DNA of 64,000 nucleotides. Source: Escherichia phage UE-S5b. This document shows, in pieces, positions 14,722 to 33,282 of this stretch (positions are counted from its first letter, which is position 1; each line of letters opens with the position of its first letter). The translations under genes were made by a program, and so were the position numbers. Under the pieces are notes generated by a model. The model had not been told where the DNA came from and did not search any database. It saw only the letters and a list, made by a program, of their open reading frames with translations. The DNA lies in the sequence record PP301341.1; one strand, written 5' to 3'.

Positions 14722-16686
14722 ATGGCTCAAATTACATGGCGTAATGTTGATGCACCTAACTTCTCTGGAGTAGGTGACAGCATTCGCACATTTGGTAGCA
14801 TGATAGGTAACGCCACCTCCGGCTTAAGTGATGCACTGGGTAATTTCCAGAACGCTGCCAAGCAGGAGGCTGGCAATGCCGTCATGATGAATGCTATGCA
14901 GTATCAAGATCCTACTGAGTACCGTAATGCTTTGGCATCAGGTGCACTGTTTCAGGGGGTTGACCCTTCATTGGTAAACCAGCGTACTCTCCAGAATCTG
15001 GATGAGCGAGCAGGTACACTGCTGACTCAACAAGGACAGCAGGGAACCAATGACTACATTGCATATCGCTTTGGTCGCTTAAAGGATATTAACTCAGCAC
15101 TAGATAATGCTTCTCCGGCTATTCGTTTATTGTCTGAGGCTTATCAGTCTGGTGACCAGAATCGTATTAATACTGCATTGGGTCAGACTCGTGAGGCATT
15201 ATCTACGCTCCCAGCTGACCAACAGTTAGAATTGTTAGGTAGTTTACAAGGACAGGGTAGTGCTGCTATTAATCAGGCGAGCAATCGTTTTGATTTGGGT
15301 GTTGCTCAACGTAATGATGCCGATAGTCAGGCAGCTATGGGTGTAATGGCACAGATTACCCGTGGTGCTGAGAACCCTAATGATGCCCGTCTGTTGGCAG
15401 AAGCATACAGTAAGAACCTGTCTCCAGTTGCACAGGCACGCTTGCAGGGATTACTGGCTAATGCTTACCCGGGTGTTTACGGTAATGGTGTAGGTGCTAC
15501 GTCTGCTCCTGGTACTGCTGGTACTCGTCAGGGTTCACCTTACGATGTTACTTATCAGTTTGCTGGTACATCTACTCCTATTACTCAAATGAGTATTGGT
15601 GATGTAATTAAACACCAGGATGGTATGAAATCGAACCAGGGTGCTTCCCCTGTTGGTGCATTCCAGATTAACCAAGCTACCTTGAAAGACTTTGCCCCCA
15701 AAGTTCTTGGTTCAGATTGGCAGAACCAACCTCTTTCCCCTGAGAACCAGGAGAAGATTGGTAAGGCTATTTTTGAGGCTCGTAAGAATGGTAACCTTAA
15801 AGATACCTGGGCTGCTCTTCCTAACTCTACCCCAGGTGCTTATAAGGATATGACTTGGGAACAGATTAAACCTGTTATTGCCCAAGCTGAAGTAGGGGCT
15901 GACCCATTCGCTCTGATTCAGAATAATCAAGGAAATCAGGCAGTATCCACTCTGGCTCAGGGTATGATTGGTACTCGTTCTATGCAGGATAATACCGGTA
16001 GTCTTAATACTGACTTCCTTGGTACTGTCACTGATAATACTCCAGTAGGTGAAATTGCTAACCGTCTATTAGATGGTGACTTTAAAGGTGCTGACCGTAA
16101 CTGGGTACTGAACCGACTAACTGATATTTCTCAACGTGGAAATATGTCACCAGCTATGGCTGCTGCTGTTATGCAGCGTGCACAGACTGGTGTACCGGAA
16201 GGTTACATTAGCCGTGCTATTGATGCAGTTAACCCATTCATTACCAACGAAGCCGGTAATGGTATGCGTCTTAATGACCGTTTGGTAGATCAGTTAATTG
16301 AGGGTGTACAACGTGGTGAACCACTGGAAGGCAGTGTGCGTAATCTTGGACGTGCTCAAGCTATGCAGAACATTCAGGCAGCACAGACTGCTTATGATGC
16401 TGCTGTAGCTGCACTGACAAATACTCAGAACAAGATTAACACCGGACAAACAGGACTTACTGCATTGTTACCTGCACGTCAGGAAGCTGTTACTAAAGCT
16501 GCTGCAATGCTTCAAGCTGCACAAGCCCAAGTGCAAGCAGACCCAGCTAACCTGGCTCCAAGAGGTTTTCGGTCACAGGNTAGTGTGGACAGAGCACGAG
16601 CCAAGGAAGATGAAGAACGTGCTGCACGTTANCTACGTCAGGCACANGGTTTGCCTGAGTATATGCAACCNAGACAAAATCGGTAA
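14722..16686 (+). CDS. internal virion protein with possible lytic transglycosylase-like motif (N4 gp51-like position)
   Basis: 654 aa; segment GMKSNQGASPVGAFQINQATLKDF is reminiscent of the SLT signature (S..AGA.GLMQ..T); 3' end contains several N. Confidence 0.55.
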   Translation: MAQITWRNVDAPNFSGVGDSIRTFGSMIGNATSGLSDALGNFQNAAKQEAGNAVMMNAMQYQDPTEYRNALASGALFQGVDPSLVNQRTLQNLDERAGTLLTQQGQQGTNDYIAYRFGRLKDINSALDNASPAIRLLSEAYQSGDQNRINTALGQTREALSTLPADQQLELLGSLQGQGSAAINQASNRFDLGVAQRNDADSQAAMGVMAQITRGAENPNDARLLAEAYSKNLSPVAQARLQGLLANAYPGVYGNGVGATSAPGTAGTRQGSPYDVTYQFAGTSTPITQMSIGDVIKHQDGMKSNQGASPVGAFQINQATLKDFAPKVLGSDWQNQPLSPENQEKIGKAIFEARKNGNLKDTWAALPNSTPGAYKDMTWEQIKPVIAQAEVGADPFALIQNNQGNQAVSTLAQGMIGTRSMQDNTGSLNTDFLGTVTDNTPVGEIANRLLDGDFKGADRNWVLNRLTDISQRGNMSPAMAAAVMQRAQTGVPEGYISRAIDAVNPFITNEAGNGMRLNDRLVDQLIEGVQRGEPLEGSVRNLGRAQAMQNIQAAQTAYDAAVAALTNTQNKINTGQTGLTALLPARQEAVTKAAAMLQAAQAQVQADPANLAPRGFRSQXSVDRARAKEDEERAARXLRQAXGLPEYMQXRQNR

Positions 16687-16693
16687 TACTAAN

Positions 16694-16762: not shown

Positions 16763-19700
16763 TTGAACAGGAAACATGCTATGTCAACATTTGACCGTCT
16801 GGCAGGTTTCGCAGACAGCATCACTAATGCTAAGCAAGTCGATGTCTCTACTGCAACCTCTCAGAAGCAAGCTGCACAAGGGCAAAGCCCTTCCCAATTA
16901 ACCCCAGAGAATGCTTACAATCTCCAAACTGGTCGTGTAGGTAATCTTGGAATCGGTGCATTCGAACCAGGTTCACTTCAGGCAGATTTCACGCAAGCCT
17001 CCCCATTAGAAATTCTTAATAAATACGGTAATGAGCAAGGTCTACAGATTCTTAATAGCCGGGCTAATGCTGCTGATGCTGTACGTCAGGACTTATCTAA
17101 ACAACGTACTAACGCAGAAGCATTTGGTGATACTCTTTCTGGTGTTGGTCTTGGTGTTGCTAATACCCTTGGGGGCATTGCTGCTCTTGGCACAGGTCTG
17201 GTCAATGATAATGCCGGGGCATCCATTGCTTCCGGTATGGATTGGCTGAATGAAGGGGTACACAATCTACAGTCTGATGCTCTGAATGCTACCCGTAAGG
17301 TTGTTCAGAATCAGAACCAGATTTCTGCACAAAAGAACCAGAAACTCTACGAAGAAGACATTAAAAATGGAGAGAGCAGTTTGGTTGCCTCTCTGTCTCG
17401 TATTGGTCGTGATGCTTTTGATTCTGTTGCTAATACGCTTGATAATGGTATGGCTGCTACTGATGGGCTGAGTGAAGGTGTTGGTTCTCTCTTTACCGGT
17501 GGTCCATTAATTCGTGGTGTATCTGCACTCGGTAAAGTAATGGTAGGTGGTGATAAAGCTGTTAAGGGTATTACCTTAGCTGCTGAGTTAGGTTCACGTC
17601 CTGCACAGGTTGCATTGTCTGCTGGTCGTGTTGCTGCACCTGCTATTGCAATTGGTGGTATGGAAGCTGGTGGTGCATACCAACAGACTGCTTCCGAAAT
17701 CATGAAGATGTCCCATCAAGAATTGGCAAGTAAGTCTCCTGTTTATCAACAGCATATCGCTGATGGTTTATCTCCTGATGAAGCACGTCGCCAAACTGCA
17801 TCTGAAACGGGTATCATTGCTGCTGGCTTAACTGCTCCGGTTGCTGCTGCTACTGGTCCTCTGGTATCCAAATTTGAACTTAACCCACTTAAGGTAGGTT
17901 CGCTGGCTGGTGCTGGTTCTAACATGCTACGTGAAACAGTAGAAGAAGGTATTCAGTCTGGTACAAGTCAGTTTGCACAGAACAAGGCAATTCAGGGTAA
18001 TGTAGATGCTAAGCGTGATTTGCTTAAAGGTGTCGGTGAGCAAGCAGGTCTTGGTGCACTCTACGGCTTCGGTAGTGCTGGTGTTGCTCAGGCTCCAGGT
18101 ACAACTGTTAAAGCTGTTGGTGCTTCTGCTGGGCCTGCTTTACGTACTACTCTGGCTGGTGCTTCTCTGGTTGGTAGTGCATTAGCAAAAGCTGCCTCTC
18201 CTATTACTAACATCCTGGTTCAGCGTGGCGAAGAAGTTGCTAAGCGTAATGAACAAGCTTCCCCTGTATCTGATGCTACGGTTAATGCTGCTGCACAAGA
18301 AGCTACTGCTCAAGCAGAACAAGCACAAGCAACTGTACAAGAAGCAGTAGATGCAATGGATATTTCTCCTGAAGAGAAAGCTGCTGCTACTCAGTATGCT
18401 GCTGACTTAACTCAGGCAATGAAATTTGACCCAGTAGAACTGGAACAAGCTAACCCAGCAATCCGTGAAGCTGTTTCTGGTTCCACTAACCGTGTTGAAG
18501 CTATTCAGAAGATGGCTGACCTGGTTAATACTGCCGAAGACCCTAACGTTCAAATGGAAGCTGCAATCCAGATGTATGACAACATCATGTCTATGGATAG
18601 CTTCATTAACCGTGATCCTGGTGCTTTAGCTAATCTGGAACAGGGTTCTCCTGCTGCTAATATTGTTGACCAGTTCTCCGGCCTGATGGCTAACGTTCAG
18701 AATACACCAAAGGTACTTCGTGCATTCCGTGCCATCCATTCTATGATTCAGGAACAGGCTGAAGCAGGTAAACTGAAAGCTACCGAAGAAGCTAACCAAG
18801 CCCAAGCAAACAACATTGCTATGGCTGCTGATATGTCTCCAGAAGTACTGGATGCAGACTCAGTGAACATGGTTCTGAAACATGCAAGTGAAGGTAAGAT
18901 TACACTGGGGAATCGTCAGCGTGCTGCCCTGCAATCTGCTGCTGCTCTATTGCAAGGAGCACGAGAATTTGACGCTAAAGCAGAAGAACTAGGCTTACGT
19001 CCTCAAGACATTGTTAGTAAACAGATTAAAACCGACGAGTCTCGTTCTAATGAAGGTCAGTACTCTGCGTTGCAACATGCTAAACGCATTCGTTCTGCGT
19101 ACAACTCTGGTAACTTCGATTTGGCTTCCGCTTACCTCGACGACTTTATGAAGTTCGCCCAGCACATGCAGAATAAGGTCGGAGCGTTGAATGAGCATCT
19201 GATTTCTGGGAATGCGGATAAGAATAAGTCTGTCCATTATCAGGCTCTTACTCCCTCCCGTGAATGGGTACGTAGTCGTACTGGTCTTGGTGTCAATCCG
19301 TATGATACCAAGTCGGTTAAGTTTGCCCAGCAAGTAGGACTGGAGGCCAAAACCGTAGCTGATATTGCTAACGCACTTGCTACGGCTTACCCGGAGCTTA
19401 ATGTTTCTCATGTGAAGGTTACTCCATTAGATTCACGTCTGGACAAGCCTGCTGCCCAGGTAGTTAAAGAGTTCCGTCAAGGTGGTCTTGATGCCACTCA
19501 GTCTCAACAGACCAATGAACCAGTGAATCAGGTTGATGAAACTCCTGCACCAGCGCAAGAGACTACTACTACTGTACAGCCTAAAGCTAAACCAGTGGTA
19601 GAAAATAAGACTGTTCCTGTTAAAGAGGCTAGTTCAAAAGCAGAAGAAGTCTCTACTACTAAGTCTGAAACAGTAGATGCTACCCTCACCAATGAGGATA

Positions 19701-22700
19701 CCACTCAAAAAGTAGCTGAAACTAAAACGGAAATGGAAACAGTTTTCCCTGTCTATAACAATGACAAGACACCGAACCAGTTCCTGAAATCATTTACCCT
19801 GCCGGAAGAACCTAAGTCTCGCACCATTGGTTCTGAATCCCCTTTGACTGATATTAAGCAAGCACTGTCTTCTACTGCACGCTTTGAAGCATTCACTCAA
19901 AAAGAAAATAACGCTCTCACAAGTGATGTGATTAAGCGTTATCAGGACTTAATGGGCTTTGGTGAAACTCTGAAGACTACTCTGTCTGATCGTCTGGCTA
20001 AGTTTCTTGCTAATAAGAACGTTGGTAAACGCTTTGCAGAAGGCACAGAGGCTAACCGTTGGGTAGGTGGTAAGTTACTTAATATCGTAGAGAAAGACGG
20101 AGACACCTTTAAGTTCAATGACCAGTTGTTAGAGACTGCTGTACTTGCTGGTCTGCAATGGCGACTGACTGCTACACAGAATGCTGCTGTTAAAGACATG
20201 AAAGATGTAGCTGCTATTACTGGAGTAGAAGCATCCTTGTTACCTGAAGGTATCCTGGCTGAATTTGAGAATGCTCAGACTCTGGTTGAAGCTACTAACT
20301 CACTGGCTCAAAAGATTGAATCTTACTGGGGATTGAATCGTAATCCTAATGCACCACTGGGTTATACCAAAGGTATTCCAATGGCAATGGCTACAGAGAT
20401 TCTGTCTTCTCTCATTGAGATGGGTGAAGTTAAAGAGTCTATGCTTGATGTGTCTGAGATTGACCCAGACTCTAATAAGACCGTCGGTCTGTATACCATT
20501 GAGAAGCTGGATGATAACGATGCCATTAACAAGTTCCCTACTGCTATCGAGGAAGCTGTTCTCGTAGAACCAGAAGAGAAAATGTACTTTGGTGATGATA
20601 TTCCTTCCGTGGCTCAAACTCAGTTACGTAACCCTGCTGTTAAGAATACCCCAGAGCAGAAAGCTGCTCTTAAAGCAGAACAGGCTACCGAGTTCCGTGT
20701 ACACATGCCGATGGTTAACTTCTATGAAGCATTAGGTCGTGACAACATTCTGGAACTGATGGGTGCTGGTACTCTTAATCCTGAACTGCTGAACGTGAAC
20801 ACTGCTAAGTCACTGGAGGGTAAAAACCTGTCAGTGTCTATGGCATATGATTCCCTGTTCGGTGTAATCAACCAGTTACAGGAACAGGAGAATGGTCTGG
20901 ATACGCCTATTCACTATGGTTACAACATGACCCGTGTAGGTCGTATGCAGATGTTAGGTAAGAACAACCCACAGTCCAGCAAGCTGGTTCGTGAAGCAAT
21001 TCTGCCAACCTTCTCTACTATCGACTTAAGTAATGAAAACAGTCAGACGTTCTCTGATTTCCAGTTAGGTCTGTCTCAGGCATTAGGTATCAAGGTTCAT
21101 AATATGTCCCGTGAAGCTATGTCTGAAAAACTGACCAAAGCTCTGGAAGGTAATTTGAAACCTGCTGTTGATATGATGGTTGAGTTTGATAAGTCCGGGC
21201 ACTTACCAGCCGATGCAGTAGATATTCTTAAGACATCTCTGGGTGGTGATAAATCATTCGTAGCTCTTATGGCTCTTATGGAGTATGCCCGTTACCTGAA
21301 CAGTGATGACCGTGCCAACTTTAATACCCCACTGTACGTTGAAGCCGATGGTGTAACCAACGGACCAATCAACGCAATGGTATTAATGACTGGTGGTAAG
21401 TTCACTTCAGACTGGATTAAGAATACTGCTAAAGGTGGTCTGTTCTTCGGTAAAGCTGGTAAGACTATGAATGAACATCGTTCACAGGATGACAGTGTTG
21501 ACCTGTATGAAGCATCTACCAATGGTCTGCAACAAGCACTTAATGAGTTACGTACTACTTACCGTAACAACGTTCCGGTTATGAACCAAATGAATCATCT
21601 TCAGAAGTTAATGGACCTGTTTATTAAAGACTTTAACCTGAATGAAGACGGTACTCTGGACCTGAAACGTGGTATCGCTAAAAACCCACTGACCATTACC
21701 ATCTATGGTTCAGGTGCTCGTGGTATTGCTGGCAAGATGGTTAGTGCAATTACTGACACCATCTATGAACGATTCAGTGATGTTCTGCAAGCTCGTGCTG
21801 CTGACCCTAGTATTTCCCCAGCTATGGCAATGTTTGGTAAGGAGGCTGCGTCTGAGGCTGATGCTCAGGCTATGCTGGATACTTTCCTTACTTCTATGGA
21901 AGCACTGACTGGTAATGTTCCAGTTATGCGTAAAGGTGAATTGTCTATTCAACAGGTAGAAGGTGCTCTGACTGGTAAGTTAGACCCTCAGAAGTTTACC
22001 GTATCGGGTAATGCCCTGAAGAACTTACAAGAGAACATGCTTCACCTGTTCGTTGAACCAATGCGTACTGGTATCCGGAATACTGTTGGGGAAGGTCTGA
22101 TGCATTCTACTGAGAACTTGCAGAAGGCTACCCAGATTCAGTCTTTGGTTCTACAAGACATGTTCCAACAAGCAGTACAGGCTAAGCTGGCAGAAAAAGA
22201 AAAAGACCCAACCTGGAAGAAGGGTGATTTCTTAACACAGAAAGAACTGAATGAAATTCAGGAATCATTGTCTCCACTGGCTCCAATGATTGAGACTGGT
22301 TCACAGACTTTCTATATTGCTGGTAGTGAGAATACTGATGTTGCTAACCAGGTACTGGCTACCAACTTAGATGACCGTATGCGTGTGCCAATGAGCATCT
22401 ATGCTCCTTCTCAGGCAGGCGTTGCAGGTATTCCATTTATGACCATTGGCACTGGTGATGGCATGATGATGCAGACCCTTTCTACTATGAAAGGTGCTCC
22501 GAAGAATACCCTGAAAATCTTTGATGGTATGAACATTGGTATCAACAACATCACTGATGCAAGTCGTAAAGCTAACGAGGCTGTATACACTTCCTGGCAG
22601 GGTAACCCTATCAAGAATGTTTATGAGTCTTTTACTAAGTTCATGAAGAACGTAGACTTCAGCAAACTATCTGATGAAACCAAACAGGCTATCGCTAAAT

Positions 22701-25700
22701 CTGCTCTGGAATATGACCAGCGTGAAGGTGCTACCGATGACCTGTTACGTGTTGGTGCTGAACAGATTGAACGTAACCTGCGTAATATTGCTCTGGGTGT
22801 AGATATTCGTCACAAAGTAATGAACCAGGTACAGACTACTGTTGACCAGATGGCTGCTGTTGGTGCTCCTTATGTGAACAACGGTAAAATCTCTCTGGAA
22901 GGTCTGACCGTAGACCAACAAGTAGCTAAGCTAAATGAACTGTTCGATGCTGAATTAAACAAACGTCGTGATGCAGTACGTGCTGCTAAAGTAGAACCAG
23001 TGAAAGAAGTGCCAGCAATGGAACAGGTTGGTCGTGTACTGAAGTCTGGTGTACGCCTACTGTCTAATACTGCTATCTCTAAGCTGGCTAAAGAGATGTC
23101 TCCGGAACAGCAAGCAGTACTGAAAGAAGTACAGAAATCCCTTGCTGCTAAAGACTATAAGGTTGTTTACGGTACACCTTCCCAACTGGATGCTTATGCT
23201 ATTGAGAAGAATATTACTCGCCCAGCACCAGAAGATATTGAAGCTGCTGAAGCTGGTAATGCGTATGGTTGGACTAACTTTGAAGATAAGACCATCTACT
23301 TAGTTACCCCTTCCTTAGAGACTCTGGTTCATGAATTGGTGCATGCTTCTACTTTTGAATCTGTACTGGCTCACTATGAGGGTACTCCTAATGAAGCGGT
23401 CCAGAACATTGAAGACCTGATGAACCAGTTCCGTGCTCTGGATGTTAAGGATGAATCCCCGGCAGTTCGGGAAGCATATGCAGATGCTCTTAATACTATT
23501 AACGGTCATTTATCTAATGGCTTTATTGAGCCAGCAATGGCTAAAGCTGCTGCACTGAATGAGTACATGGCATGGGGTTTAACCAACCGTGAACTGATTA
23601 GTAAGCAGAAGAAAACCACTGCACTTAAGACTATGGTTCAGGCTGTATATGAAGCAATTAAACGTCTGGTATTCGGGCGTAAGAAAGCACCAGCTAATGC
23701 AGATGATATGTTCTCTGGCTTACTGTTTAACTCGTCCGTAGTTATGCGTGGGCAAGCTCCTACTGCTGCTGTAGCCAAAGATACTACTCTGTTCCATAAC
23801 AAAACGTATGGTGACAATACTCGTCTGGAAGAGCTAGGGAAAACCTTCGATAAACTGATTACTGACTACATTGGTTCTGAACCAGTACAGCAAGTAATTC
23901 GTAAAGGTAAGTTCTCTGATGCAGTGGTTAATGCGACTAAAGTAACTCGTGATGTTCAGGCTCATGGCTTCACTATGAATATGCAGGAACAACGTCTCTT
24001 TACTAACATTGTTGCTGCTCTGGCTACTGAGGCTGCTATTAATCCTGCTGCTCTGGCTCGTGCGCAGGAATACTACACACATGTTACTAAGAACCTGACC
24101 GTTGAGTCATTCATGNCTGACCCAGATAGTACTAACCCTGCTGACCGTTACTATGCACAGCAGAAGTTCGATACCATCATGGGTGCTAACAACATTGAGT
24201 TTGATTCACAAGGTCGTTCCTCCTTACTGCCTACCTTTATTGGTCTGGCGATGGTAAGTGAAGAGGTACGTAAAGTGCTGGCTGATATTCCAGTTATGAA
24301 AGTAGACAAGAAATCTGGCAATACCGCTGATGCAATGCTGACTAACATCGGTACTGCTGCAATGGCTAGTCTGAATGCTCGTGTAGCAGGAGATACTAAA
24401 GCTACCAACGTACAGGAAGGTATGGATGCACTGGCTCAGACAATCATGCAGACCAGTCTTAATGCACAATCCTTCTATGATTCCGTTGCTACTCCTACGG
24501 GTAATGCTATTGATCGTGCTAACCAGTATCTGGTGGACTCTATTGATGTACTGTCTACCCGTGCTTTAGAAGGTGCTCGTGAAGTTGCAGCTAATACCAA
24601 GAACCCGTTGGTTAAAGGTGCTGCCCATGCTGCACAATTAATAGCTGCTATTGCTACAGAGAAGAATGGTGCAATCGTAGCCGAAGGTGTTATGGCTGCA
24701 ATGAACCAGGGTAAGGTATGGCAACCTTTCCATGACCTGGTTAATGACTTAACTGGTCGTACTAAGAGCAATGCTTCTGTATATGATTTGATTAAAGCAG
24801 TGCGTGCACAGGTACAGGCTGACCGTCAACAGTTCCGTGAACATCTGCCCACCACTATTGCATCTAAGTTCAGCCGTAAGCTTACTAATGATGAGTGGAA
24901 AGCAATGCATACCGGTATGGGTAAAACCGACTTAGCTGTTCTGCGTGACACTATGTCTCTGGGTGAAATTCGTGACTTGCTGACTGACCAAAAGATTGTT
25001 GACCGTGAAGTGAATAAGCTGGAAGCAGATTTGCAGAAACAAGCAGGACGTAACTGGCCTTTGATTAGCCGTAAATCTAAGCAACTGGCTCAGTACATGA
25101 TTAATGGCACAGTTGGTAATAACTTGCTGCGTAATGCTACTGCAATCTCTCGTATGCTGGGTGAACGACAGGCTGCACGTTCTACTGTAGACGTAGCTCA
25201 ACTGGATAAACTGATTACTCTGTATGCACTGGAAGCAATGAGTAAGACTGACCGTGAGATGTTATCTTCACTGGCTCAATCAGAGATTGAAGGCATGGAC
25301 TTCGCTACTTCTTATCTGGTTGGTCAGCGTAAAGATGAAATGGCTAAAGCCAAATCTGATACTCGTGCAACTCTGAACCAGTACAAAGGGTATATTCCTG
25401 GTGAGACTAAACAGGGTGTTAACTTGATTGTTGCTGAAGATAGTCAGTTTGCTGATTTGATTGAGAAGTCCTATGTACGTCTGGGTACTTATCAGGGTAG
25501 CTCTGCTAATCGTGGTCCAGCACGTAGCTACTACTTTGCACCGGTACAGGCACAGGCTCCATTCTCGCAAGGTATCTTACAGAACGTTCGCAATACTGCT
25601 GGTGGTGTAGACCTTGGTACAGGCTTTACGATGGGTACAATGGTAGCTGGTCGTATCACTGACAAGCCTTCTGTAGACCGTATCACTAAAGCACTGGCTC

Positions 25701-27133
25701 GCGGTGAACGTGGTAATGAACCACTGCTGCCTGTATATGATGATAAAGGCAATGTGGTTGCTTATGAGCAATCTATTGACCCTAACATGCTGAAGCACAT
25801 TGAGGGTGAGAACCATCTCGCTCGTGCAATCGGTGTATGGCGTGGTCGTCAGGTAGAGGAAGCTAAGGCTCAGCGTTTCAACGATATGCTGATTGAGAAC
25901 CTGCATAGCATGTATAAAAACGACATTAAAATGTCTGCCTCTAACAAGTCACAGTACGTTAACCTTCTTGGTTCTAAACTGGACCCAGTAACTGCTGATG
26001 CCCTTAAGCTGATGAACAGTGAAACTCGTCAGAAAGCAGAAAGTCTGTTTGGTCCTGGTGAGTTGTGGGTACGTCGTGACATGCTGAATGATGCACTGGG
26101 CTATCGTGCAGCTTCCGTAGGTGATGCCTGGTCTGGCAATTCTCGTTGGTCACCAGAAACACTGGATACCTTCAAGAAAGCTATGTTGGGTGTATTCGGC
26201 AACCGTGCTTATAAGTATGTAATGGGTGGTGAGAACCTGGTTCAAAACTTAGTTAAAGAAGCCAAAACTCTGATTGTAGTTAAGTCAGTAGTTGTTCCTG
26301 CTGTTAACTTCCTGGCTAACCTTTACCAGATGGTTGGTCGTGGTGTACCTGTTAAGAACATTGCTAAGAGCATTCCACAGAAGACTGCTGAGATTAACCA
26401 GTACCTGAAATCTCGTCTGCGTCAGGTAGATGCAGAAGCAGANTTACGTGCAGCTACTAACCCGAACCAGATTCGTAAGCTTAAGGCTGAAATTCAGTCC
26501 ATCACTGATAGTCATAAGCGTATGAGTATCTGGCCTCTGTTAGAAGCTGGTGAGTTTTCTTCAATTGCAGATGCTGGTATTGGACGAGATGACATCCTGA
26601 TTACTGAAGGTAAACTTCACGAATACATGGATAAACTGGCTGATAAGTTACCTAAGTCTGTACGTAATGCTGGACGTTATGCCCTTATCACCAAGGATAC
26701 TGCTTTATTCCAGGGTATCCAGAAGACGGTTGAGTACTCTGACTTTATTGCTAAAGCAATCATCTATGATGATTTGACTCAGCGTAAAGGTAAGACTCGT
26801 GAAGAAGCACTTGGACGTGTAACGGAAGAGTTCATTAACTATGACCGTCTGCCTGGTCGCTTCCGTGGGTATATGGAAAGTGTTGGTCTTATGTGGTTCT
26901 ATAACTTTAAGATTCGTTCTGCAAAAATTGCAGTATCCATGATTCGTAACAACCCGGTACACGCAGCTATGGCTATGTTGGCTCCAACTCCTACCATGTT
27001 TGGTAATGTTGGTTTACCTATTCAGGACAACATCTTCAGTATTGCTGCACAAGGCAATCTCGGTTACTCCTGGGGCTTCGGTCAGGGACTTCGTGCCCAT
27101 AACCTTAACCCTTGGCTCAATCTAGCTAACTAA
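16763..27133 (+). CDS. virion-encapsidated RNA polymerase (vRNAP, N4 gp50-like)
   Basis: Single 3456 aa ORF, the hallmark giant protein of N4-like phages; last gene of the late operon; contains T7-RNAP-like motif B-like segment (PLTITIYGSG). Three isolated N. Confidence 0.9.
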   Translation: MNRKHAMSTFDRLAGFADSITNAKQVDVSTATSQKQAAQGQSPSQLTPENAYNLQTGRVGNLGIGAFEPGSLQADFTQASPLEILNKYGNEQGLQILNSRANAADAVRQDLSKQRTNAEAFGDTLSGVGLGVANTLGGIAALGTGLVNDNAGASIASGMDWLNEGVHNLQSDALNATRKVVQNQNQISAQKNQKLYEEDIKNGESSLVASLSRIGRDAFDSVANTLDNGMAATDGLSEGVGSLFTGGPLIRGVSALGKVMVGGDKAVKGITLAAELGSRPAQVALSAGRVAAPAIAIGGMEAGGAYQQTASEIMKMSHQELASKSPVYQQHIADGLSPDEARRQTASETGIIAAGLTAPVAAATGPLVSKFELNPLKVGSLAGAGSNMLRETVEEGIQSGTSQFAQNKAIQGNVDAKRDLLKGVGEQAGLGALYGFGSAGVAQAPGTTVKAVGASAGPALRTTLAGASLVGSALAKAASPITNILVQRGEEVAKRNEQASPVSDATVNAAAQEATAQAEQAQATVQEAVDAMDISPEEKAAATQYAADLTQAMKFDPVELEQANPAIREAVSGSTNRVEAIQKMADLVNTAEDPNVQMEAAIQMYDNIMSMDSFINRDPGALANLEQGSPAANIVDQFSGLMANVQNTPKVLRAFRAIHSMIQEQAEAGKLKATEEANQAQANNIAMAADMSPEVLDADSVNMVLKHASEGKITLGNRQRAALQSAAALLQGAREFDAKAEELGLRPQDIVSKQIKTDESRSNEGQYSALQHAKRIRSAYNSGNFDLASAYLDDFMKFAQHMQNKVGALNEHLISGNADKNKSVHYQALTPSREWVRSRTGLGVNPYDTKSVKFAQQVGLEAKTVADIANALATAYPELNVSHVKVTPLDSRLDKPAAQVVKEFRQGGLDATQSQQTNEPVNQVDETPAPAQETTTTVQPKAKPVVENKTVPVKEASSKAEEVSTTKSETVDATLTNEDTTQKVAETKTEMETVFPVYNNDKTPNQFLKSFTLPEEPKSRTIGSESPLTDIKQALSSTARFEAFTQKENNALTSDVIKRYQDLMGFGETLKTTLSDRLAKFLANKNVGKRFAEGTEANRWVGGKLLNIVEKDGDTFKFNDQLLETAVLAGLQWRLTATQNAAVKDMKDVAAITGVEASLLPEGILAEFENAQTLVEATNSLAQKIESYWGLNRNPNAPLGYTKGIPMAMATEILSSLIEMGEVKESMLDVSEIDPDSNKTVGLYTIEKLDDNDAINKFPTAIEEAVLVEPEEKMYFGDDIPSVAQTQLRNPAVKNTPEQKAALKAEQATEFRVHMPMVNFYEALGRDNILELMGAGTLNPELLNVNTAKSLEGKNLSVSMAYDSLFGVINQLQEQENGLDTPIHYGYNMTRVGRMQMLGKNNPQSSKLVREAILPTFSTIDLSNENSQTFSDFQLGLSQALGIKVHNMSREAMSEKLTKALEGNLKPAVDMMVEFDKSGHLPADAVDILKTSLGGDKSFVALMALMEYARYLNSDDRANFNTPLYVEADGVTNGPINAMVLMTGGKFTSDWIKNTAKGGLFFGKAGKTMNEHRSQDDSVDLYEASTNGLQQALNELRTTYRNNVPVMNQMNHLQKLMDLFIKDFNLNEDGTLDLKRGIAKNPLTITIYGSGARGIAGKMVSAITDTIYERFSDVLQARAADPSISPAMAMFGKEAASEADAQAMLDTFLTSMEALTGNVPVMRKGELSIQQVEGALTGKLDPQKFTVSGNALKNLQENMLHLFVEPMRTGIRNTVGEGLMHSTENLQKATQIQSLVLQDMFQQAVQAKLAEKEKDPTWKKGDFLTQKELNEIQESLSPLAPMIETGSQTFYIAGSENTDVANQVLATNLDDRMRVPMSIYAPSQAGVAGIPFMTIGTGDGMMMQTLSTMKGAPKNTLKIFDGMNIGINNITDASRKANEAVYTSWQGNPIKNVYESFTKFMKNVDFSKLSDETKQAIAKSALEYDQREGATDDLLRVGAEQIERNLRNIALGVDIRHKVMNQVQTTVDQMAAVGAPYVNNGKISLEGLTVDQQVAKLNELFDAELNKRRDAVRAAKVEPVKEVPAMEQVGRVLKSGVRLLSNTAISKLAKEMSPEQQAVLKEVQKSLAAKDYKVVYGTPSQLDAYAIEKNITRPAPEDIEAAEAGNAYGWTNFEDKTIYLVTPSLETLVHELVHASTFESVLAHYEGTPNEAVQNIEDLMNQFRALDVKDESPAVREAYADALNTINGHLSNGFIEPAMAKAAALNEYMAWGLTNRELISKQKKTTALKTMVQAVYEAIKRLVFGRKKAPANADDMFSGLLFNSSVVMRGQAPTAAVAKDTTLFHNKTYGDNTRLEELGKTFDKLITDYIGSEPVQQVIRKGKFSDAVVNATKVTRDVQAHGFTMNMQEQRLFTNIVAALATEAAINPAALARAQEYYTHVTKNLTVESFMXDPDSTNPADRYYAQQKFDTIMGANNIEFDSQGRSSLLPTFIGLAMVSEEVRKVLADIPVMKVDKKSGNTADAMLTNIGTAAMASLNARVAGDTKATNVQEGMDALAQTIMQTSLNAQSFYDSVATPTGNAIDRANQYLVDSIDVLSTRALEGAREVAANTKNPLVKGAAHAAQLIAAIATEKNGAIVAEGVMAAMNQGKVWQPFHDLVNDLTGRTKSNASVYDLIKAVRAQVQADRQQFREHLPTTIASKFSRKLTNDEWKAMHTGMGKTDLAVLRDTMSLGEIRDLLTDQKIVDREVNKLEADLQKQAGRNWPLISRKSKQLAQYMINGTVGNNLLRNATAISRMLGERQAARSTVDVAQLDKLITLYALEAMSKTDREMLSSLAQSEIEGMDFATSYLVGQRKDEMAKAKSDTRATLNQYKGYIPGETKQGVNLIVAEDSQFADLIEKSYVRLGTYQGSSANRGPARSYYFAPVQAQAPFSQGILQNVRNTAGGVDLGTGFTMGTMVAGRITDKPSVDRITKALARGERGNEPLLPVYDDKGNVVAYEQSIDPNMLKHIEGENHLARAIGVWRGRQVEEAKAQRFNDMLIENLHSMYKNDIKMSASNKSQYVNLLGSKLDPVTADALKLMNSETRQKAESLFGPGELWVRRDMLNDALGYRAASVGDAWSGNSRWSPETLDTFKKAMLGVFGNRAYKYVMGGENLVQNLVKEAKTLIVVKSVVVPAVNFLANLYQMVGRGVPVKNIAKSIPQKTAEINQYLKSRLRQVDAEAXLRAATNPNQIRKLKAEIQSITDSHKRMSIWPLLEAGEFSSIADAGIGRDDILITEGKLHEYMDKLADKLPKSVRNAGRYALITKDTALFQGIQKTVEYSDFIAKAIIYDDLTQRKGKTREEALGRVTEEFINYDRLPGRFRGYMESVGLMWFYNFKIRSAKIAVSMIRNNPVHAAMAMLAPTPTMFGNVGLPIQDNIFSIAAQGNLGYSWGFGQGLRAHNLNPWLNLAN

Positions 27134-28340: not shown

Positions 28341-28376
28341 TAAAAAAGTCCCCCAGAGTGACGGCTCCAGGGGACT
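28341..28376 (-). terminator. putative terminator downstream of tRNA array
   Basis: GTCCCC/GGGGAC stem with 16 nt loop; followed by a U-run on the - strand. Confidence 0.4.
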
Positions 28377-28620
28377 TAGTACTATTTACCCATAGCTGGG
28401 AGGCTTTTGGTTCTTACCACGAAGACAGTCCACGCTGACNAGNCTTGGGATTGATAGTCCCGTTCCTGTGGTAATTACTCAGGCTAGGATTTAAGGAGTT
28501 CCTATTCTCCAGCGAAATTCCCGTCGANGGGAATAACAATACAATAGCAGNCACTGGACTGTCTTACCAGTGTTGTCTTTAGAGTGCNATGCAATCAGGA
28601 CTATGTTACTGCTGAATGGG

Positions 28621-28694
28621 TGTCCACTACTGGATTTGAACCAGTGACTTTCCGATTATTAGTCGGTTGCTTTCCCCGTCTAAGCTAAGTGGAC
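28621..28694 (-). tRNA. tRNA gene, canonical cloverleaf, anticodon loop CUAAUAA (apparent anticodon AAU, identity uncertain)
   Basis: Hand fold of - strand: acceptor GTCCACT/AGTGGAC (7 bp perfect), D-arm GCTT/AAGC, T-arm ACTGG-TTCAAAT-CCAGT, anticodon stem CCGA/TCGG. Confidence 0.55.
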
Positions 28695-28700
28695 TTATTA

Positions 28701-28776
28701 TGGTTACCCAGGCAGGATTCGAACCTGCGTCCTAGTTGGTTTACTAGTGGGGCTTTACCACTAAGCCTACTGGGTA
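28701..28776 (-). tRNA. tRNA gene with encoded CCA; anticodon loop appears 6 nt (AAACCA), identity unresolved
   Basis: Hand fold: acceptor TACCCAG/CTGGGTA, D-arm GGCT-TAGTGGTAA-AGCC, T-arm GCAGG-TTCGAAT-CCTGC, 3' ACCA; anticodon stem CTAGT/ACTAG leaves a 6 nt loop. Confidence 0.55.
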
Positions 28777-28779
28777 TTA

Positions 28780-29640
28780 ATAGGGGAGTCATGCCAGGCT
28801 TTAACTGGCTCCTTCTTCGCAATCCTTACATACCCCTACATAATTATTGCGTTAAGCTTTTTTGTTTAAGTTTAAGTGAAGGCGTTCTTGCTGACTCATA
28901 ATAGAGTGGGCGTTTGACGAATGACTAGTTCGTTACTACCCGTTTGCCATAAGTACCTGGCGACTTTGGTTTGAGGTGGGAGTCCGAGTCCTGTACAGCC
29001 TTACCGTTCACACATTGGCAGCGTATCTAGAGTTGCACTTCCGGCAACTGGATTTAACTGTTACACCTCAAATAGGCAGTGGGGGATGGAATCGAACCAT
29101 CAGTATTAAGTCTTATTCGTGCACCAAGCACGCTAGTAGATTACTCTACCGGAGGGAATCGAACCCTATCTACTTCACCAGACCCACCATAATTCTTCCA
29201 ATTTAGAGTAGCATTGTCACGGTGGGTGCTTTAAATGCCGGGAAACATTTAAATATACAATGCTACTTTGAATTGGTTATCAGTGAAGGATTCGAACCTC
29301 CGGTTGGAGTCTATAGCTTACCGCAGCAGCCCTCCAATCTAGCGGTGTCACACTTAGTCCAAACTTGAACATGTCAAGCCATCTCGTGCAACTGATAATT
29401 GGTTCCGGCGTCTGGACTCGAACCAGAACACTCATGCCGTGCACGACACTAGTACCTACACCGGAATTAATTGCCAGGGATTCCACCTGGCTCCATCTGT
29501 TTTTATAGTCACTCAGATATCGTCTGGACTGTAGGCATGGGTGGGAATCGAACCCACAAACCATTCAGCACTGTAGCCTCACGCTCTACCTATTTGAGCT
29601 ATCACATACCATTGATTAACTCCCCGTTTCTAATACATGG
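28780..29640 (-). other. array of tRNA-like elements (at least five more T-arm signatures), several with non-canonical lengths
   Basis: T-arm signatures on - strand at 29085-29101, 29152-29168, 29285-29301, 29411-29427 and 29541-29557. Perfect acceptor-type 7 bp pairings at 29278-29284/29391-29397 (120 nt apart) and 29404-29410/29459-29465 (66 nt element ending in CCA). A D-arm-like GCTC-AAATAGGTA-GAGC lies near 29585-29601. Confidence 0.4.
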
Positions 29641-29649
29641 ACGGGGACA

Positions 29650-30290
29650 CTCCACGGTCGTTTGATAATCAGGACGACTCACTCCTGACTGACGCTTGGC
29701 TTATTAGGCTGCCATCAGAACAACATCATCGTTTGCATTTATGTTATTGGTTCGTTTCTAAAAAACCGCATAATCGCTTACGAAAACTATCAAAGAGTAC
29801 ACTAGCTCTGGGCCACGCTTGTGGANATCGGCCTACCTTCCACAGCTAATCAACTAATGCACTCACTGATAGCCCATAATAGGGGGGAGGGGACGAATCC
29901 TCCCTTTATACCCTATATTGCATGTAAGATCTAACAGTTCGATGTTGTAGGTAGCTAGGCTATCCGACATTTAACCCAGCCCATATAGGGGCTTATGTGA
30001 TTAGAATGCTCAACATTGAGCGGTTAGTTTGATAAGGGATCTGAAGCCTTATCCTAAAGATACTAACCTTTGGGATATAGCCTAAGATTCAGAAATGGCC
30101 CCTATAGGAAGAGGCCATTGATTAACCCGAATGTTGCTTTACATTTTCTGTGATAACCGATTCTTAAAATAGTCTGTCTGACGGATGGGGGGCCACCCCT
30201 AGCGTCAGTGCCATACGGCAAAGATTAAGTTAAGAAAGGTTATGATAGGAGTTCCTATCTCAAAGGATTCTAACAGAACCCTTCACGATA
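29650..30290. promoter_or_regulatory. non-coding region with repeated GCCCATA(A/T)AGGGG-type palindromic motifs and hairpins
   Basis: Motif at 29871-29892 and 29978-29993 and in inverted orientation at 30097-30108 within hairpin AATGGCC...GGCCATT; GGGG-CCA-CCCC at about 30187-30198; no convincing ORF. Confidence 0.3.
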
Positions 30291-30461
30291 TTAACTACTC
30301 TTTTTTAATGCCTTTACTTCACCATCTTTATACCAAGCATATGGTATTAAGATTTTGCAACCTTCTGAATCAATGTGGAATGCTTTGTTCCCTTCAACAG
30401 GTTCTCCACCCACGAAAGAACTAACCTTTCCATTGAGCCAGTGAATAGTAAATTTGTTCAT
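30291..30461 (-). CDS. small hypothetical protein (56 aa), not in ORF track
   Basis: Hand translation MNKFTIHWLNGKVSSFVGGEPVEGNKAFHIDSEGCKILIPYAWYKDGEVKALKKSS; no clear Shine-Dalgarno (NN upstream). Confidence 0.3.
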   Translation of the reverse strand: MNKFTIHWLNGKVSSFVGGEPVEGNKAFHIDSEGCKILIPYAWYKDGEVKALKKSS

Positions 30462-30692
30462 GTTAACCNNGTTTGAACCAATCCCCTTCNGAGAGTATTA
30501 AAGGGGACTGGTTCGGTTGTTGTTATTCTGGCGGCTTGTCACCACCGTGTTTACCACTGCATTTCCACAGGATAATGACAGTGATGATAAAAGCTATGTA
30601 TGGAGCCGACACGTCTATAATCCTGACCAGTAGTAGCATCAGGACTATAAACACTACCACACCTAGCAGCAGCTTCTGAGCCACCTACCAGA

Positions 30693-31692: not shown

Positions 31693-32489
31693 TAACGTTT
31701 ACCGAACAGTGATTTACCACCAGCAGGAGCAGTACCCGTGCCAGCACTTGGTTTAGGAGGCAAGCCACCTTTGCCATTACCACCAGCAGAACCCTTGGTC
31801 TTATCACGGGTTTTACCCTTGTTCTTTTCTAACCATGCTGCATAAAATACAGCCAGTTCTGGGGTCAGTTCTTTCTCAGCCTTCTCTGCTTCCTGAGCCT
31901 CGACGACTGTGACCAGCAGTTCCGGGTGAAACACTTTCTGAATCTCGTTTACTTCACGGGTTTCACCGGAATCAACGTAACCGTTGTCACCCTTAACCTG
32001 CTTAGATTCCAGAACCTTTTCCAGGGCGAAGGTAACAGTCTGACCAACCAGGTCTACTGGAACCATGACAGATTTATTAACTTCTGCTTTAGCATCGAAG
32101 TCATAGACTTTAACAATCTTCTCTTCGAAGTCAGCTTCAGGCAGTTCCGTACCGGTAGCCATCAGCATCATGTCGTTAATGACGGTGTATCCCGGCAGGA
32201 AGTATTCTTTACCGTTCTTCTCGTAAGTAGGCTTATTGCCTTTAGAATTACCAGAAGTGAAGTACACCTGTGAACGGAACTCGCCAGCATCATTACCATC
32301 AGAACCTTTCAGGTTTTCAATGATTAACTGCATCCAGTCTGCACCAGAGTCAGCTTTACCTACGTAAGCTACTTTTACAGTACCGGTGTAGATATCTGAC
32401 TCCTTTGCACCGAAGCCACCACCACCAAGGGAGTCTTTTACAGCTTCAACGTTTTTGGTTTTTTCTTTCAAGTTACTGAACAGTGACAT
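31692..32489 (-). CDS. single-stranded DNA-binding protein (N4 gp45-like)
   Basis: 265 aa; Gly-rich termini; position after the primase and ATPase genes matches N4 SSB; assignment mainly by synteny and size. Confidence 0.55.
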   Translation of the reverse strand: MSLFSNLKEKTKNVEAVKDSLGGGGFGAKESDIYTGTVKVAYVGKADSGADWMQLIIENLKGSDGNDAGEFRSQVYFTSGNSKGNKPTYEKNGKEYFLPGYTVINDMMLMATGTELPEADFEEKIVKVYDFDAKAEVNKSVMVPVDLVGQTVTFALEKVLESKQVKGDNGYVDSGETREVNEIQKVFHPELLVTVVEAQEAEKAEKELTPELAVFYAAWLEKNKGKTRDKTKGSAGGNGKGGLPPKPSAGTGTAPAGGKSLFGKR

Positions 32490-32529
32490 AATATTTTTCC
32501 TAATAAGTGATTAACAACCAGGCAAACGC

Positions 32530-33282
32530 TTAAGCGTAGTATTCAGCCAGATGGTCTAAGAGTTTCTGGGCATCATTATCAATGTAAGTCTCAGACTTAT
32601 CGAACATACCCATTGGGGAACGTAGACGTTTACCAACAGACTTCTTGGTTGGGCGAGTCTGGAATACGTGCTTATAACCTAAGTCACGTTCTTCTTCGGT
32701 AATTTCAAGCATCTTGTTGCCATACTTCTCCAGCTCTTTAATGTCTACACGCTCTGCGTAAACCACTGTAGAGAAGTAAGCCTCAAGACCATTGTTCTTC
32801 AGAGAACCTTTCACTGGGATGAATGTTTTAATCACACCAGCAGCTTCGTCGAGTTCATCTTTGGCATGGGCAGTAATAATTACTGGCTTACCAAATTTAA
32901 CAACTTTCTGTTGCAGCAGTATTTTAAAGAACTGTGCAAAATCTCCCCATGCCTTCTGAGTATTAGCAGATGGCAGTACATACTGAGATTCCAGCATATC
33001 CATCATGAAGGTAGCAGAGTCGATAATGATTCCATCAACATCGTCTGCCATTTCACCACCTGGGGATGCAACATCAAATGCTTCCCAAATCTGATATGGG
33101 TCTTCAATGTTGTAGGTATTGAATTTGTTACGGAAGGGTAGACGTTTGCCCGCTTCAGTATTCAGATATAGCCAGCGTTCCTGGTTCCTGATGTTACGCA
33201 GTGATGCTGATTTACCACTCGCTGAGAATCCTGCAATCAGGATTAGCTGAGTGTTCATATCATTGGAGATTTCTTCGGACAT
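32530..33282 (-). CDS. RecA-fold ATPase (Sak4-like/AAA_24-like)
   Basis: Walker A GFSASGKS, Walker B-like GIIIDS. Confidence 0.6.
   Translation of the reverse strand: MSEEISNDMNTQLILIAGFSASGKSASLRNIRNQERWLYLNTEAGKRLPFRNKFNTYNIEDPYQIWEAFDVASPGGEMADDVDGIIIDSATFMMDMLESQYVLPSANTQKAWGDFAQFFKILLQQKVVKFGKPVIITAHAKDELDEAAGVIKTFIPVKGSLKNNGLEAYFSTVVYAERVDIKELEKYGNKMLEITEEERDLGYKHVFQTRPTKKSVGKRLRSPMGMFDKSETYIDNDAQKLLDHLAEYYA

Follow-up and report, generated by a model that had tools for sequence, protein, structure and literature searches.

A tRNA locus of Escherichia phage UE-S5b with candidate non-decoding tRNA-like RNAs and a tmRNA-like module complementary to host tmRNA

Organization of the locus

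The stretch of DNA analyzed here, hereafter called the window, comprises 64,000 nucleotides of Escherichia phage UE-S5b (accession number PP301341.1), and the element in question is an interval of it, positions 28621-29640, located on the minus strand in a gap of about 1.5 kb that is poor in open reading frames (ORFs) and lies between the gp48-like and gp47-like genes. Judging from its sequence, the window represents an N4-like coliphage genome, that of a Gamaleyavirus; in a region of 1.7 kb around the interval it shares 99.6% identity with Escherichia phage UE-M6 and 84–99% with other Gamaleyavirus phages (G7C-like, N4-like). The interval and its immediate upstream flank do not appear to make up an ordinary set of decoding tRNA genes and look rather like a series of structured RNAs that derive from tRNAs and are maintained by selection, together with a module which resembles the template part of transfer-messenger RNA (tmRNA, encoded by ssrA) and possesses a 5′ arm antisense to the tmRNA of the host (Table 1).

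The equivalent gp47-gp48 gap is occupied by ordinary tRNA genes in phages N4, Moo19 and KP8, so the interval can be considered the tRNA locus of the subfamily. The N4 genes code for tRNA-Asn, tRNA-Ser, tRNA-Thr and tRNA-Pro and were found with ARAGORN and Rfam (50.5–77.5 bits) at positions 32451-33130 of the reference record EF056009 (1311-1990 of our locus L135), where no tRNA is annotated; the conserved 66-nt tRNA-like RNA lies there between tRNA-Thr and tRNA-Pro. The Moo19 set includes tRNA-Tyr, tRNA-Asn, tRNA-Pro and tRNA-Gln, as well as a tRNA-Ile annotated in the record.

The strict T-arm motif (a 5-bp stem with a TTCRANY loop) occurs 10 times in the window, and seven of these occurrences, all on the minus strand, fall within the 913 nt of 28645-29557, compared with a mean of 1.1 and a maximum of five in whole shuffled windows. 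A first-pass annotation, made from the letters alone, had suspected at least five T-arms in addition to two cloverleaves folded by hand, and all five are indeed present, starting at 29557, 29427, 29301, 29168 and 29101.

Table 1 Features of the tRNA locus of phage UE-S5b, listed in the 5′ to 3′ direction of the minus strand (PK, pseudoknot)
Feature	Position	Strand	Description
Hairpin A	29787..29872	-	Long helix CUAUCAGUGAGUGCA / UGUACUCUUUGAUAG, ornate insert with inner hairpin GUGGA..UCCAC; immediately 5′ of the tag module
tmRNA-like tag module	29610..29787	-	Linker, resume codon, 10-codon tag, helix 5, PK2, PK3
5′ arm of the tag module	29748..29787	-	GUUUUCGUAAGCGAUUAUGCGGUUUUUUAGAAACGAACCA, 40 nt; reverse complement of E. 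coli ssrA nt 56-105
Linker	29737..29747	-	AUAACAUAAAU, 11 nt; precedes the resume codon; U at -5, A at -4
Tag reading frame	29701..29736	-	GCA AAC GAU GAU GUU GUU CUG AUG GCA GCC UAA UAA = ANDDVVLMAA and two stops
Helix 5 analogue	29689..29718	-	CUGA..UCAG, UGGC..GCCA; stop codons in the loop
PK2-like H-type pseudoknot	29657..29688	-	UCAGGA..GUCG..UCCUGA..CGAC; covariation
PK3-like pseudoknot	29610..29646	-	CCCCGU..CCAU..ACGGGG..AUGG; last stem overlaps G1 and G2 of the pseudo-tRNA
Pseudo-tRNA	29533..29610	-	Acceptor stem, D-arm and T-arm intact; anticodon arm degenerate; no CCA
Conserved spacer	29467..29529	-	AGUCCAGACGAUAUCUGAGUGACUAUAAAAACAGAUGGAGCCAGGUGGAAUCCCUGGCAAUUAA, 63 nt; precedes the 66-nt RNA
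66-nt tRNA-like RNA	29400..29465	-	7-bp acceptor stem, UAGG, long hairpin with GUGCAC loop, T-arm, A73, encoded CCA
124-nt tRNA-like RNA	29274..29397	-	7-bp acceptor stem, two extended arms replacing the D and anticodon arms, T-arm, A73, encoded CCA
Long hairpin	29199..29270	-	AGUAGCAUUGU..ACAAUGCUACU with inner hairpin; minimum free energy -20.6 kcal/mol, z = -5.1, 0/200 shuffles as good
111-nt multi-arm tRNA-like element	29078..29188	-	Closed by GGUGGG/CCCCAC; T-arm motifs from 29168 and 29101; fold z = -1.4; less well supported
Hairpin module	28777..28869	-	Motif UAUGUAGGGGUAUGUAAGG (28842-28824); directly upstream of tRNA2
tRNA2	28701..28776	-	Cloverleaf RNA, 6-nt loop AAACCA, encoded CCA; ARAGORN 'tRNA-???', Rfam 42.8 bits
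tRNA-Ile	28619..28694	-	Anticodon AAU, loop CUAAUAA; ARAGORN tRNA-Ile(aat), Rfam 65.6 bits; no complete encoded CCA
3′ structured domain	28378..28618	-	~240 nt, flanked by tRNA-Ile and the terminator; consensus fold from alignment A2
Intrinsic terminator	28346..28377	-	13-bp stem, then UUUUUUAU; terminator scan; closes the putative unit

Template, linker and pseudoknots of the tag module

The tag module, not mentioned in the first-pass annotation, starts inside the interval, which it overlaps by only about 30 nt, and extends just upstream of it. Its reading frame of 10 codons is kept in all 130 instances found, with 17 peptide variants which all follow the pattern AN[DE]x....[AV]A and with many synonymous variants. 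The entropy at the three codon positions is 0.61/0.38/0.89; frame 0 is free of stops throughout, and the other two frames contain them in 30/31 and 24/31 distinct sequences. The linker shows no indels across the 60 aligned tag modules that make up alignment A1. In E. coli tmRNA the linker is also 11 nt long and U85 and A86, which set the reading frame, occupy the same positions as the U and A of the phage linker (PMC2481249).

Downstream of the tag, structure is indicated by covariation over the same 60 modules. In the helix 5 analogue, columns 83:106 of alignment A1 hold an AU pair in 30 modules and a GC pair in 30; both stems of the PK2-like pseudoknot covary (e.g. UA/CG 27:26, GC/AU/CG 28:20:11 and CG/GC 44:11); and in stem 1 of the PK3-like pseudoknot all four pairs change on both sides, the second stem being read from the sequence. 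Taken together, helix 5, PK2 and PK3 are paired in 83% of cells versus 41–51% with slid partners, changes on both sides occur in 156 cells versus 57 in shuffles, and the covariation score is 0.236 versus 0.06–0.11, with these values drawn from related sequences and some of the counts lowered by shifts of the alignment.

Hairpin A also shows compensatory changes, its strands being CCAUCGGGGAGUACA/UGUACUCCCCGAUGG in PhAPEC5 and CUAUCAAUGAGUACA/UGUACUCAUUGAUAG in KKP3715, with GAGGA/UCCUC as the inner hairpin in KP8. Analogous hairpins with different stem sequences flank the tag module in other phages, and these long flanking hairpins are independent, each covarying within itself.

Complementarity of the 5′ arm to host tmRNA

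The arm, with the consensus GUUUUCGU[loop]GCGAyUwUGCGGnUUUUUAGAAAC.GACCA, is the most invariant part of the tag module in alignment A1. The segment of E. coli ssrA to which it is antisense (nt 56-105) consists of the 3′ half of PK1, the A-rich linker, the resume codon (G90) and the first five codons. For the arm of the window RNAduplex predicts 34 bp with ssrA at -39.2 kcal/mol, while dinucleotide shuffles average -22.9 kcal/mol (z = -6.0, 0/300 as good), and the arms compared with dinucleotide shuffles as a whole form 34–40 bp at -39 to -46 kcal/mol, with z from -4.4 to -6.0 and 0/300 shuffles as good. All 55 of 55 distinct arms, a few gapped duplicate rows among them, choose ssrA 56-105, with predicted free energies from -33 to -48 kcal/mol. 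Local alignment scores of the arms are 20–45 (median 33) on the antisense strand of ssrA versus 13–18 (median 15) on the sense strand, and in variants whose loop is longer the arm is almost perfectly antisense to ssrA. Other elements of the locus, compared with ssrA in the sense or antisense direction, gave nothing above shuffled controls.

Pairing of the arm with its own downstream RNA is much weaker (-15 to -30 kcal/mol), and in the minimum-energy fold of the free module RNA the arm pairs with the resume region of the module itself. The phage strand exits the predicted duplex by host nt ~56, at the side of PK1 nearer to P2, and its own GCA follows exactly 11 nt on. The arm probably base-pairs with host tmRNA in vivo. 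A recent capture of host ssrA was considered as the origin of the module and rejected, with the sense similarity to ssrA confined to the tag.

Absence of a tRNA-like domain from the tag module

ARAGORN in its tmRNA mode was negative at all tag module loci on which it was run, and with all Rfam tmRNA models the module remained below the gathering score, the best match of any model being the sub-threshold one to permuted tmRNA (tmRNA_permuted, RF04321) at 29704-29806, with 32.7 bits versus a gathering score of 47. No G3-U70 acceptor stem, T-arm, CCA, P2 helix or PK4 was detected in the tag module, there is no T-arm within 2.5 kb in many of the tag module loci, and the whole HK620 genome gave no tRNA-like match of any kind. 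Since the tRNA-like domain is a defining test of tmRNA and it fails here, the tag module is not classed as a tmRNA.

Several candidates for the missing part were considered and rejected. A P2b partner for the conserved UUUGCGG is absent in 161/195 instances, and the matches in the remainder look like chance. A permuted tmRNA with the acceptor piece inside hairpin A was discarded as the inserts have no T-arm and CCA in most lineages and a promoter lies 7 nt before the arm in some loci. P2-like cross-pairing, in which the 3′ strand of hairpin A and the 5′ strand of hairpin B would close a template ring, does not agree with the N4-like hairpin A strands, which covary mutually and mismatch hairpin B. 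Lastly, hairpin B followed by 'ACCA' was tried as an acceptor end; ACCA occurs only in PhAPEC5 and PGN829.1, and the helix has 13–17 bp, not 7.

The 66-nt and 124-nt tRNA-like RNAs

Both elements are uncalled by ARAGORN and lie below the Rfam gathering score, their tRNA-like character being limited to the acceptor stem, T-arm, A73 and CCA. The 66-nt element with its encoded CCA had been proposed from acceptor pairing in the first-pass annotation and was recovered exactly; the second element, put there at 120 nt, exists with the acceptor stem and T-arm as described, and its length is 124 nt when the CCA is included (29397-29274).

The 66-nt RNA has no anticodon arm. In alignment A3, consisting of 12 distinct variants including those of N4-like phages, KP8 and cp20, 97.7% of cells are paired versus at most 47% with slid partners, and five pairs change on both sides. 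The RNA and the spacer preceding it are 97% identical in N4, the neighbouring sequence being far more diverged. The self-complementary GUGCAC loop (29437-29442, minus strand) is conserved in 11 of the 12 variants and could mediate kissing-loop dimerisation.

For the 124-nt RNA (alignment A4) the corresponding values are 99.7% of cells paired versus at most 48%, again with five pairs changed on both sides, three of them in the acceptor stem, which exists in the variants UAUCAGU, UACCAGU and UACUGGU, each accompanied by the matching 3′ strand. Sixty internal nucleotides are invariant across genera, even in Klebsiella phage KP8. There is also an invariant loop of 22 nt, GGCUGCUGCGGUAAGCUAUAGA, at 29314-29335 (minus strand), which recalls the 530-loop sequence of 16S rRNA, GCAGCCGCGGUAA, and this may be a coincidence.

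tRNA-Ile(AAU) and tRNA2

The two hand-folded cloverleaves and their odd loops were both confirmed by ARAGORN, and both exceed the gathering score of 29 of the Rfam model RF00005. The loop CUAAUAA of tRNA-Ile has the canonical form, and its anticodon AAU, with A at position 34 (A34), is not a normal bacterial Ile anticodon. This loop is invariant in seven distinct Gamaleyavirus variants, in which the acceptor and anticodon stems vary compensatorily. The nearest relatives in other phage arrays are ileX-like tRNAs with the anticodon CAU, so A34 is a derived change (C34 to A34). AUU accounts for 61.5% of the Ile codons in the long ORFs of the window, so AAU is the Watson-Crick partner of the commonest Ile codon of the phage.

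As for tRNA2, it passes the Rfam gathering score but does not possess a 7-nt anticodon loop. The 6-nt loop is kept in KKP3715 (AAACUA) together with a compensatory change in the acceptor stem from CAG/CUG to CGG/CCG, and KP8 contains tRNA2 analogues with 6-nt and 4-nt loops. Judging from these loops, neither tRNA2 nor its analogues would be able to decode. The motif UAUGUAGGGGUAUGUAAGG of the hairpin module next to tRNA2 is also found just upstream of a CAU-anticodon tRNA in Buchananvirus-type arrays (e.g. loci L010, L113, L114 and L121), and UAGGGG in this region could pair with CCCCUA at 28793-28788.

Distribution of the tag module

A segment of the tag module is present in at least 533 phage records, with 73–97% identity over part of its length, and is annotated in none of them. 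In P1-like phages it is located between dmt and the tRNA genes, and in HK620 (15800-16270 in loci L011/L147) it lies in the late leader between pR′/qut and the late-leader terminator tQ, so that in lysogens it would be part of the short constitutive pR′ transcript. Its hosts also include Buchananvirus, Ackermannviridae and Klebsiella N4-like phages. In several loci the consensus promoter TTGACA-17-TAGATT is found 7 nt before the arm, and in KpCHEMY26 no other element separates the module from a terminator. A need for host tmRNA is known for P22-like, lambda-P22 hybrid and Mu phages.

An unannotated HK620-type copy was found in 147 of 5426 complete E. coli genomes (~3%), and a pattern scan of IMG/VR gave at least 120 contigs. 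Among species-representative genomes there are four prophage-like matches (three from Enterobacterales) and none to a genuine tmRNA, for which reason a bacterial donor tmRNA was rejected as the source of the module.

Loci L009-L131 (e.g. L011 1090-1660 and L016) contain phage and prophage arrays of repeated long hairpins of the type CACAACAGGUAAGAGCA[variable insert]UGCUCUUUCCGUUGUG, the inserts of which are often tRNA fragments and the stems of which are long enough for RNase III sites. The same arrays hold tRNA-like modules of the form UGUGGUG..GCCGGAGAUCAGCNCCGGC-CACCACA and give the impression of mobile RNA cassettes that form one modular family.

Other elements and surroundings of the locus

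The pseudo-tRNA is annotated elsewhere (UE-M6, ECBP1) as tRNA-Cys or Pseudo-ACA, with ARAGORN reporting tRNA-Cys(aca) only in ECBP1; its acceptor stem is kept via G-U or G-C changes in ECBP1 and JZBo1. Like the 111-nt element, it is less well supported than the other elements. The first ~60 nt of the conserved spacer are also present in unrelated Klebsiella and Salmonella phages (SopranoGao, Kp4882-3, KpF5 and Segz_1), and the spacer opens with GUCCAGACG, a sequence that duplicates the 3′ end of the 66-nt RNA. The spacer may act as a promoter or represent a mobile motif.

At the other end of the locus, the first ~110 nt of the 3′ structured domain are almost invariant in Gamaleyavirus, Klebsiella phage KP8 and Shigella phage Moo19, the second half being variable; N4 also contains about 70 nt of the domain, which may represent a further non-coding RNA. 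The terminator shows compensatory stem changes in relatives and is annotated as such in PhAPEC5 and G7C.

Outside the locus, the virion RNA polymerase is encoded by an ORF of 3456 aa at 16763-27133. The ~800 nt 5′ of hairpin A (29900-30690) are also poor in ORFs, the only annotation there in UE-M6 being a single ORF of 40 aa; this region starts with a GGGAGGAUUCGUCCCCUCCC hairpin, and its position is occupied by an HNH endonuclease gene in G7C and by a tRNA-like element, called tRNA-Ala(cgc) by ARAGORN, in ECBP1.

Relation to known systems

The tag module shares with bacterial tmRNA (ssrA, standard and permuted; RF00023, RF01849-51, RF04321) the GCA resume codon, a 10-residue AND..-..AA tag (ANDENYALAA in E. 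coli), the 11-nt linker with U(-5)A(-4), the stops in the loop of helix 5 and H-type pseudoknots after the tag. Unlike tmRNA, it has no acceptor stem, G3-U70, T-arm, CCA, P2 or PK4, and its 5′ part is antisense to host tmRNA instead of being half of a tRNA-like domain. Complete tmRNA genes are known in mycobacteriophages of the Bxz1 group and in Bacillus phage G, while DS6A carries the tRNA-like domain alone, which indicates that phages can retain an incomplete tmRNA and that it can interfere with the tmRNA of the host; no tmRNA of enterobacterial phages is listed in the same survey (PMC4131195). The phage module resembles these cases in that a phage carries part of the trans-translation RNA, and with respect to DS6A it is the converse, having only the template and the pseudoknots, to which an antisense arm is added. 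The 79 phage sequences of the 2025 tmRNA database were found by ARAGORN, BLAST-based and Rfam-type tools (PMC11915505), and tools of these kinds miss the tag module.

Synthetic anti-ssrA oligonucleotides suppress trans-translation in ribosome display and cell-free translation (PMC3384345); they are likewise complementary to tmRNA, but are man-made DNA and bring no template with them. In the literature searched, no naturally occurring RNA antisense to tmRNA was found, and a search for tag peptides, tmRNA in N4-like phages, permuted phage tmRNA and tmRNA-like RNAs yielded nothing relevant, both searches covering a single library.

With regard to the tRNA-like RNAs, the species 1 and 2 RNAs of T4 (rnaC and rnaD) are stable RNAs of tRNA size or larger with tRNA-like acceptor ends, located inside the phage tRNA cluster. 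The elements of the window differ from them in being Enquatrovirinae-specific and supported by covariation, and the likeness to the T4 RNAs is one of general description. A tRNA-like acceptor/T-arm serves as a processing and stability handle in mascRNA/MALAT1, in the tRNA-miRNA units of gammaherpesviruses and in engineered scaffolds; these are eukaryotic or artificial, whereas for the phage the same idea is suggested by anatomy alone. Phage tRNAs reported to evade nucleases have loops departing from those of the host and, unlike most elements here, decode and possess 7-nt loops, so that only tRNA-Ile(AAU) would fit (PMC10264068).

Interpretation of the locus

It is quite reasonable to read the whole as a non-coding tRNA locus of Gamaleyavirus that holds selected tRNA-derived RNAs and a tmRNA-like docking module, and we would give this reading, taken as a whole, a probability of roughly 0.55. 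In the proposed mechanism the single-stranded template of host tmRNA would offer a toehold for pairing with the module RNA, and docking would mask the host resume codon and free the phage's own at the native 11-nt distance. The host alanyl tRNA-like domain together with SmpB would then deliver the phage template, and stalled products would receive the phage tag, i.e. the tag would be swapped. Because the arm of the free RNA appears to pair with its own resume region, docking would act as a switch. In a minimal alternative, docking would merely block host tagging. We regard tag swapping as possible while rather doubting it.

The 66-nt and 124-nt RNAs and tRNA2, in which the anticodon domain is lost or replaced, would be unable to decode. 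The acceptor/T-arm helix retained in them could be a handle for RNase P, 3′ trimming and the CCA enzyme, providing both processing and stability, and such RNAs would act via the replaced 'payload' domains or as acceptor-end mimics. As a matter of conjecture, the obvious sites of action would be the 60 nucleotides that never vary in the 124-nt RNA and, in the 66-nt RNA, the palindromic loop GUGCAC. In its widest form the proposal would be that a mobile RNA of at least five unrelated lineages, by which N4-like, P1-like, P22/lambdoid, Buchananvirus and Ackermannviridae phages are meant, reprograms host ribosome rescue by docking or tag swap, the CCA-ended tRNA-like RNAs being further tRNA-scaffolded effectors; this is speculative, and we incline against it.

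A number of observations weigh against the interpretation given above. Folding of single sequences gives a z of only -0.2 for the 124-nt RNA versus shuffles and -0.7 for the tag module, and because these z-scores are weak the case for structure is carried by covariation within a rather small set of related sequences; no covariation was seen for PK1 in cis in the 60 modules. The target used for the arms was E. coli ssrA alone, and the RNAduplex background is high, with shuffles at about -23 to -28 kcal/mol. Host PK1 must unwind for full pairing of the arm, and the geometry of a heteroduplex of 35–40 bp on the ribosome would be a weak point of the docking model. Any role for tRNA-like RNAs with no anticodon is conjecture. 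A promoter scan of the minus strand of the window locus gave nothing convincing, and it is only inferred that the locus forms one minus-strand unit from ~29870 to the terminator.

Among the other explanations, the one by which sequencing or assembly errors distorted ordinary tRNA genes, raised in the first-pass annotation because of the N positions, can be set aside as having a negligible probability. The window does contain 64 Ns, in small scattered clusters (e.g. 3562-3628, 7440-7509, 16580-16693 and 49047-49089) that point to masking of low-quality positions in a consensus and not to gaps, and six of them fall within 28440-29826 (28440, 28443, 28528, 28551, 28588 and 29826). All six, however, are outside the tRNA and tRNA-like elements, and UE-M6, in which the Ns are resolved, has the same element sequences, which excludes sequencing error as their source; UE-S5a, UE-M3 and PBM-3 carry identical sequences too, and distant isolates keep the odd loops with compensatory stem changes. 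Of the other two options named at that stage, non-canonical tRNA-like RNAs are the one supported, and degenerate pseudo-tRNAs, i.e. functionless, decaying relics of the array present in N4, Moo19 and KP8, are improbable. The locus is homologous to a normal tRNA array, close relatives have gained or lost individual modules, recombination debris is suggested by fragments such as the duplicated GUCCAGACG and an antisense T-arm seen in another phage, and the pseudo-tRNA and the 111-nt element are weakly supported, all of which would suit decay. Decay would not account for the fact that in the 66-nt and 124-nt RNAs, tRNA2 and tRNA-Ile pairing is near-perfect and substitutions are compensatory, nor for the extreme conservation of the 66-nt RNA between N4 and Gamaleyavirus amid diverged neighbours and of the 60 nt of the 124-nt RNA across genera. 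The suggestion that the aberrant loops are decoys or escape variants against host anticodon nucleases is improbable too. It has been reported that phage tRNAs with changed anticodon loops evade tRNA-targeting defences (PMC10264068), and A34 of tRNA-Ile did arise within an ileX-type tRNA; yet tRNA2 and the 66-nt and 124-nt RNAs offer no anticodon loop to a nuclease and could not replace a cleaved tRNA, and AAU is simply cognate to the commonest Ile codon. This idea thus fits poorly for the elements without such a loop and would be possible for tRNA-Ile(AAU).

The remaining alternatives concern the tag module. It might be the coding piece of a two-piece phage tmRNA with the 66-nt or 124-nt RNA as the acceptor piece, which we consider highly improbable. 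Natural two-piece tmRNAs do exist (PMC11915505), the 66-nt RNA is shaped like the tRNA-like domain of tmRNA (acceptor stem, short GG loop, one helix, T-arm and CCA), and in KP8 the 124-nt RNA lies directly 3′ of PK3. Nevertheless, there is no complementarity joining the pieces and no P2b partner, G3-U70 is absent from both RNAs, and the pieces assort independently: N4 lacks the tag but has the 66-nt RNA, the IME11-type locus (L142) lacks the 124-nt RNA but has the tag, and HK620, Sa179lw and KpCHEMY26 have the tag with neither RNA. Inhibition alone, in which the module would mask the tmRNA template as an antisense RNA and its own tag would remain untranslated, is an unlikely explanation but one with some points in its favour, namely the antisense arm itself, the block of trans-translation by synthetic anti-tmRNA oligonucleotides (PMC3384345) and the inhibition of tmRNA reported for a mini-tmRNA consisting of the tRNA-like domain only (PMC4131195). 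An inhibitor would have no need of the coding signature, the degron-like end, the 11-nt linker with U(-5)A(-4), helix 5 and the covarying PK2 and PK3, and it is because of the coding signature, linker and pseudoknots that more than inhibition is argued for here.

Significance

Should the docking model be true, the tag module would be the first natural factor acting in trans to regulate or re-template trans-translation; in effect, host and virus would together make up a two-piece tmRNA, which would offer a design for programmable tagging. The tmRNA system is nearly universal in bacteria. A true tag swap would be categorically new; otherwise the locus varies known kinds, namely phage tRNA clusters and tmRNA. 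Even without the docking model, a conserved and widespread RNA is unannotated in hundreds of phage genomes, including those of the P1 and HK620 types, and in ~3% of complete E. coli genomes. The calls 'pseudo-tRNA' and 'tRNA-OTHER' in N4-like therapeutic phages would in turn stand for selected, structured RNAs, and phage tRNA loci can, as this one suggests, evolve into operons of non-decoding tRNA-shaped RNAs.

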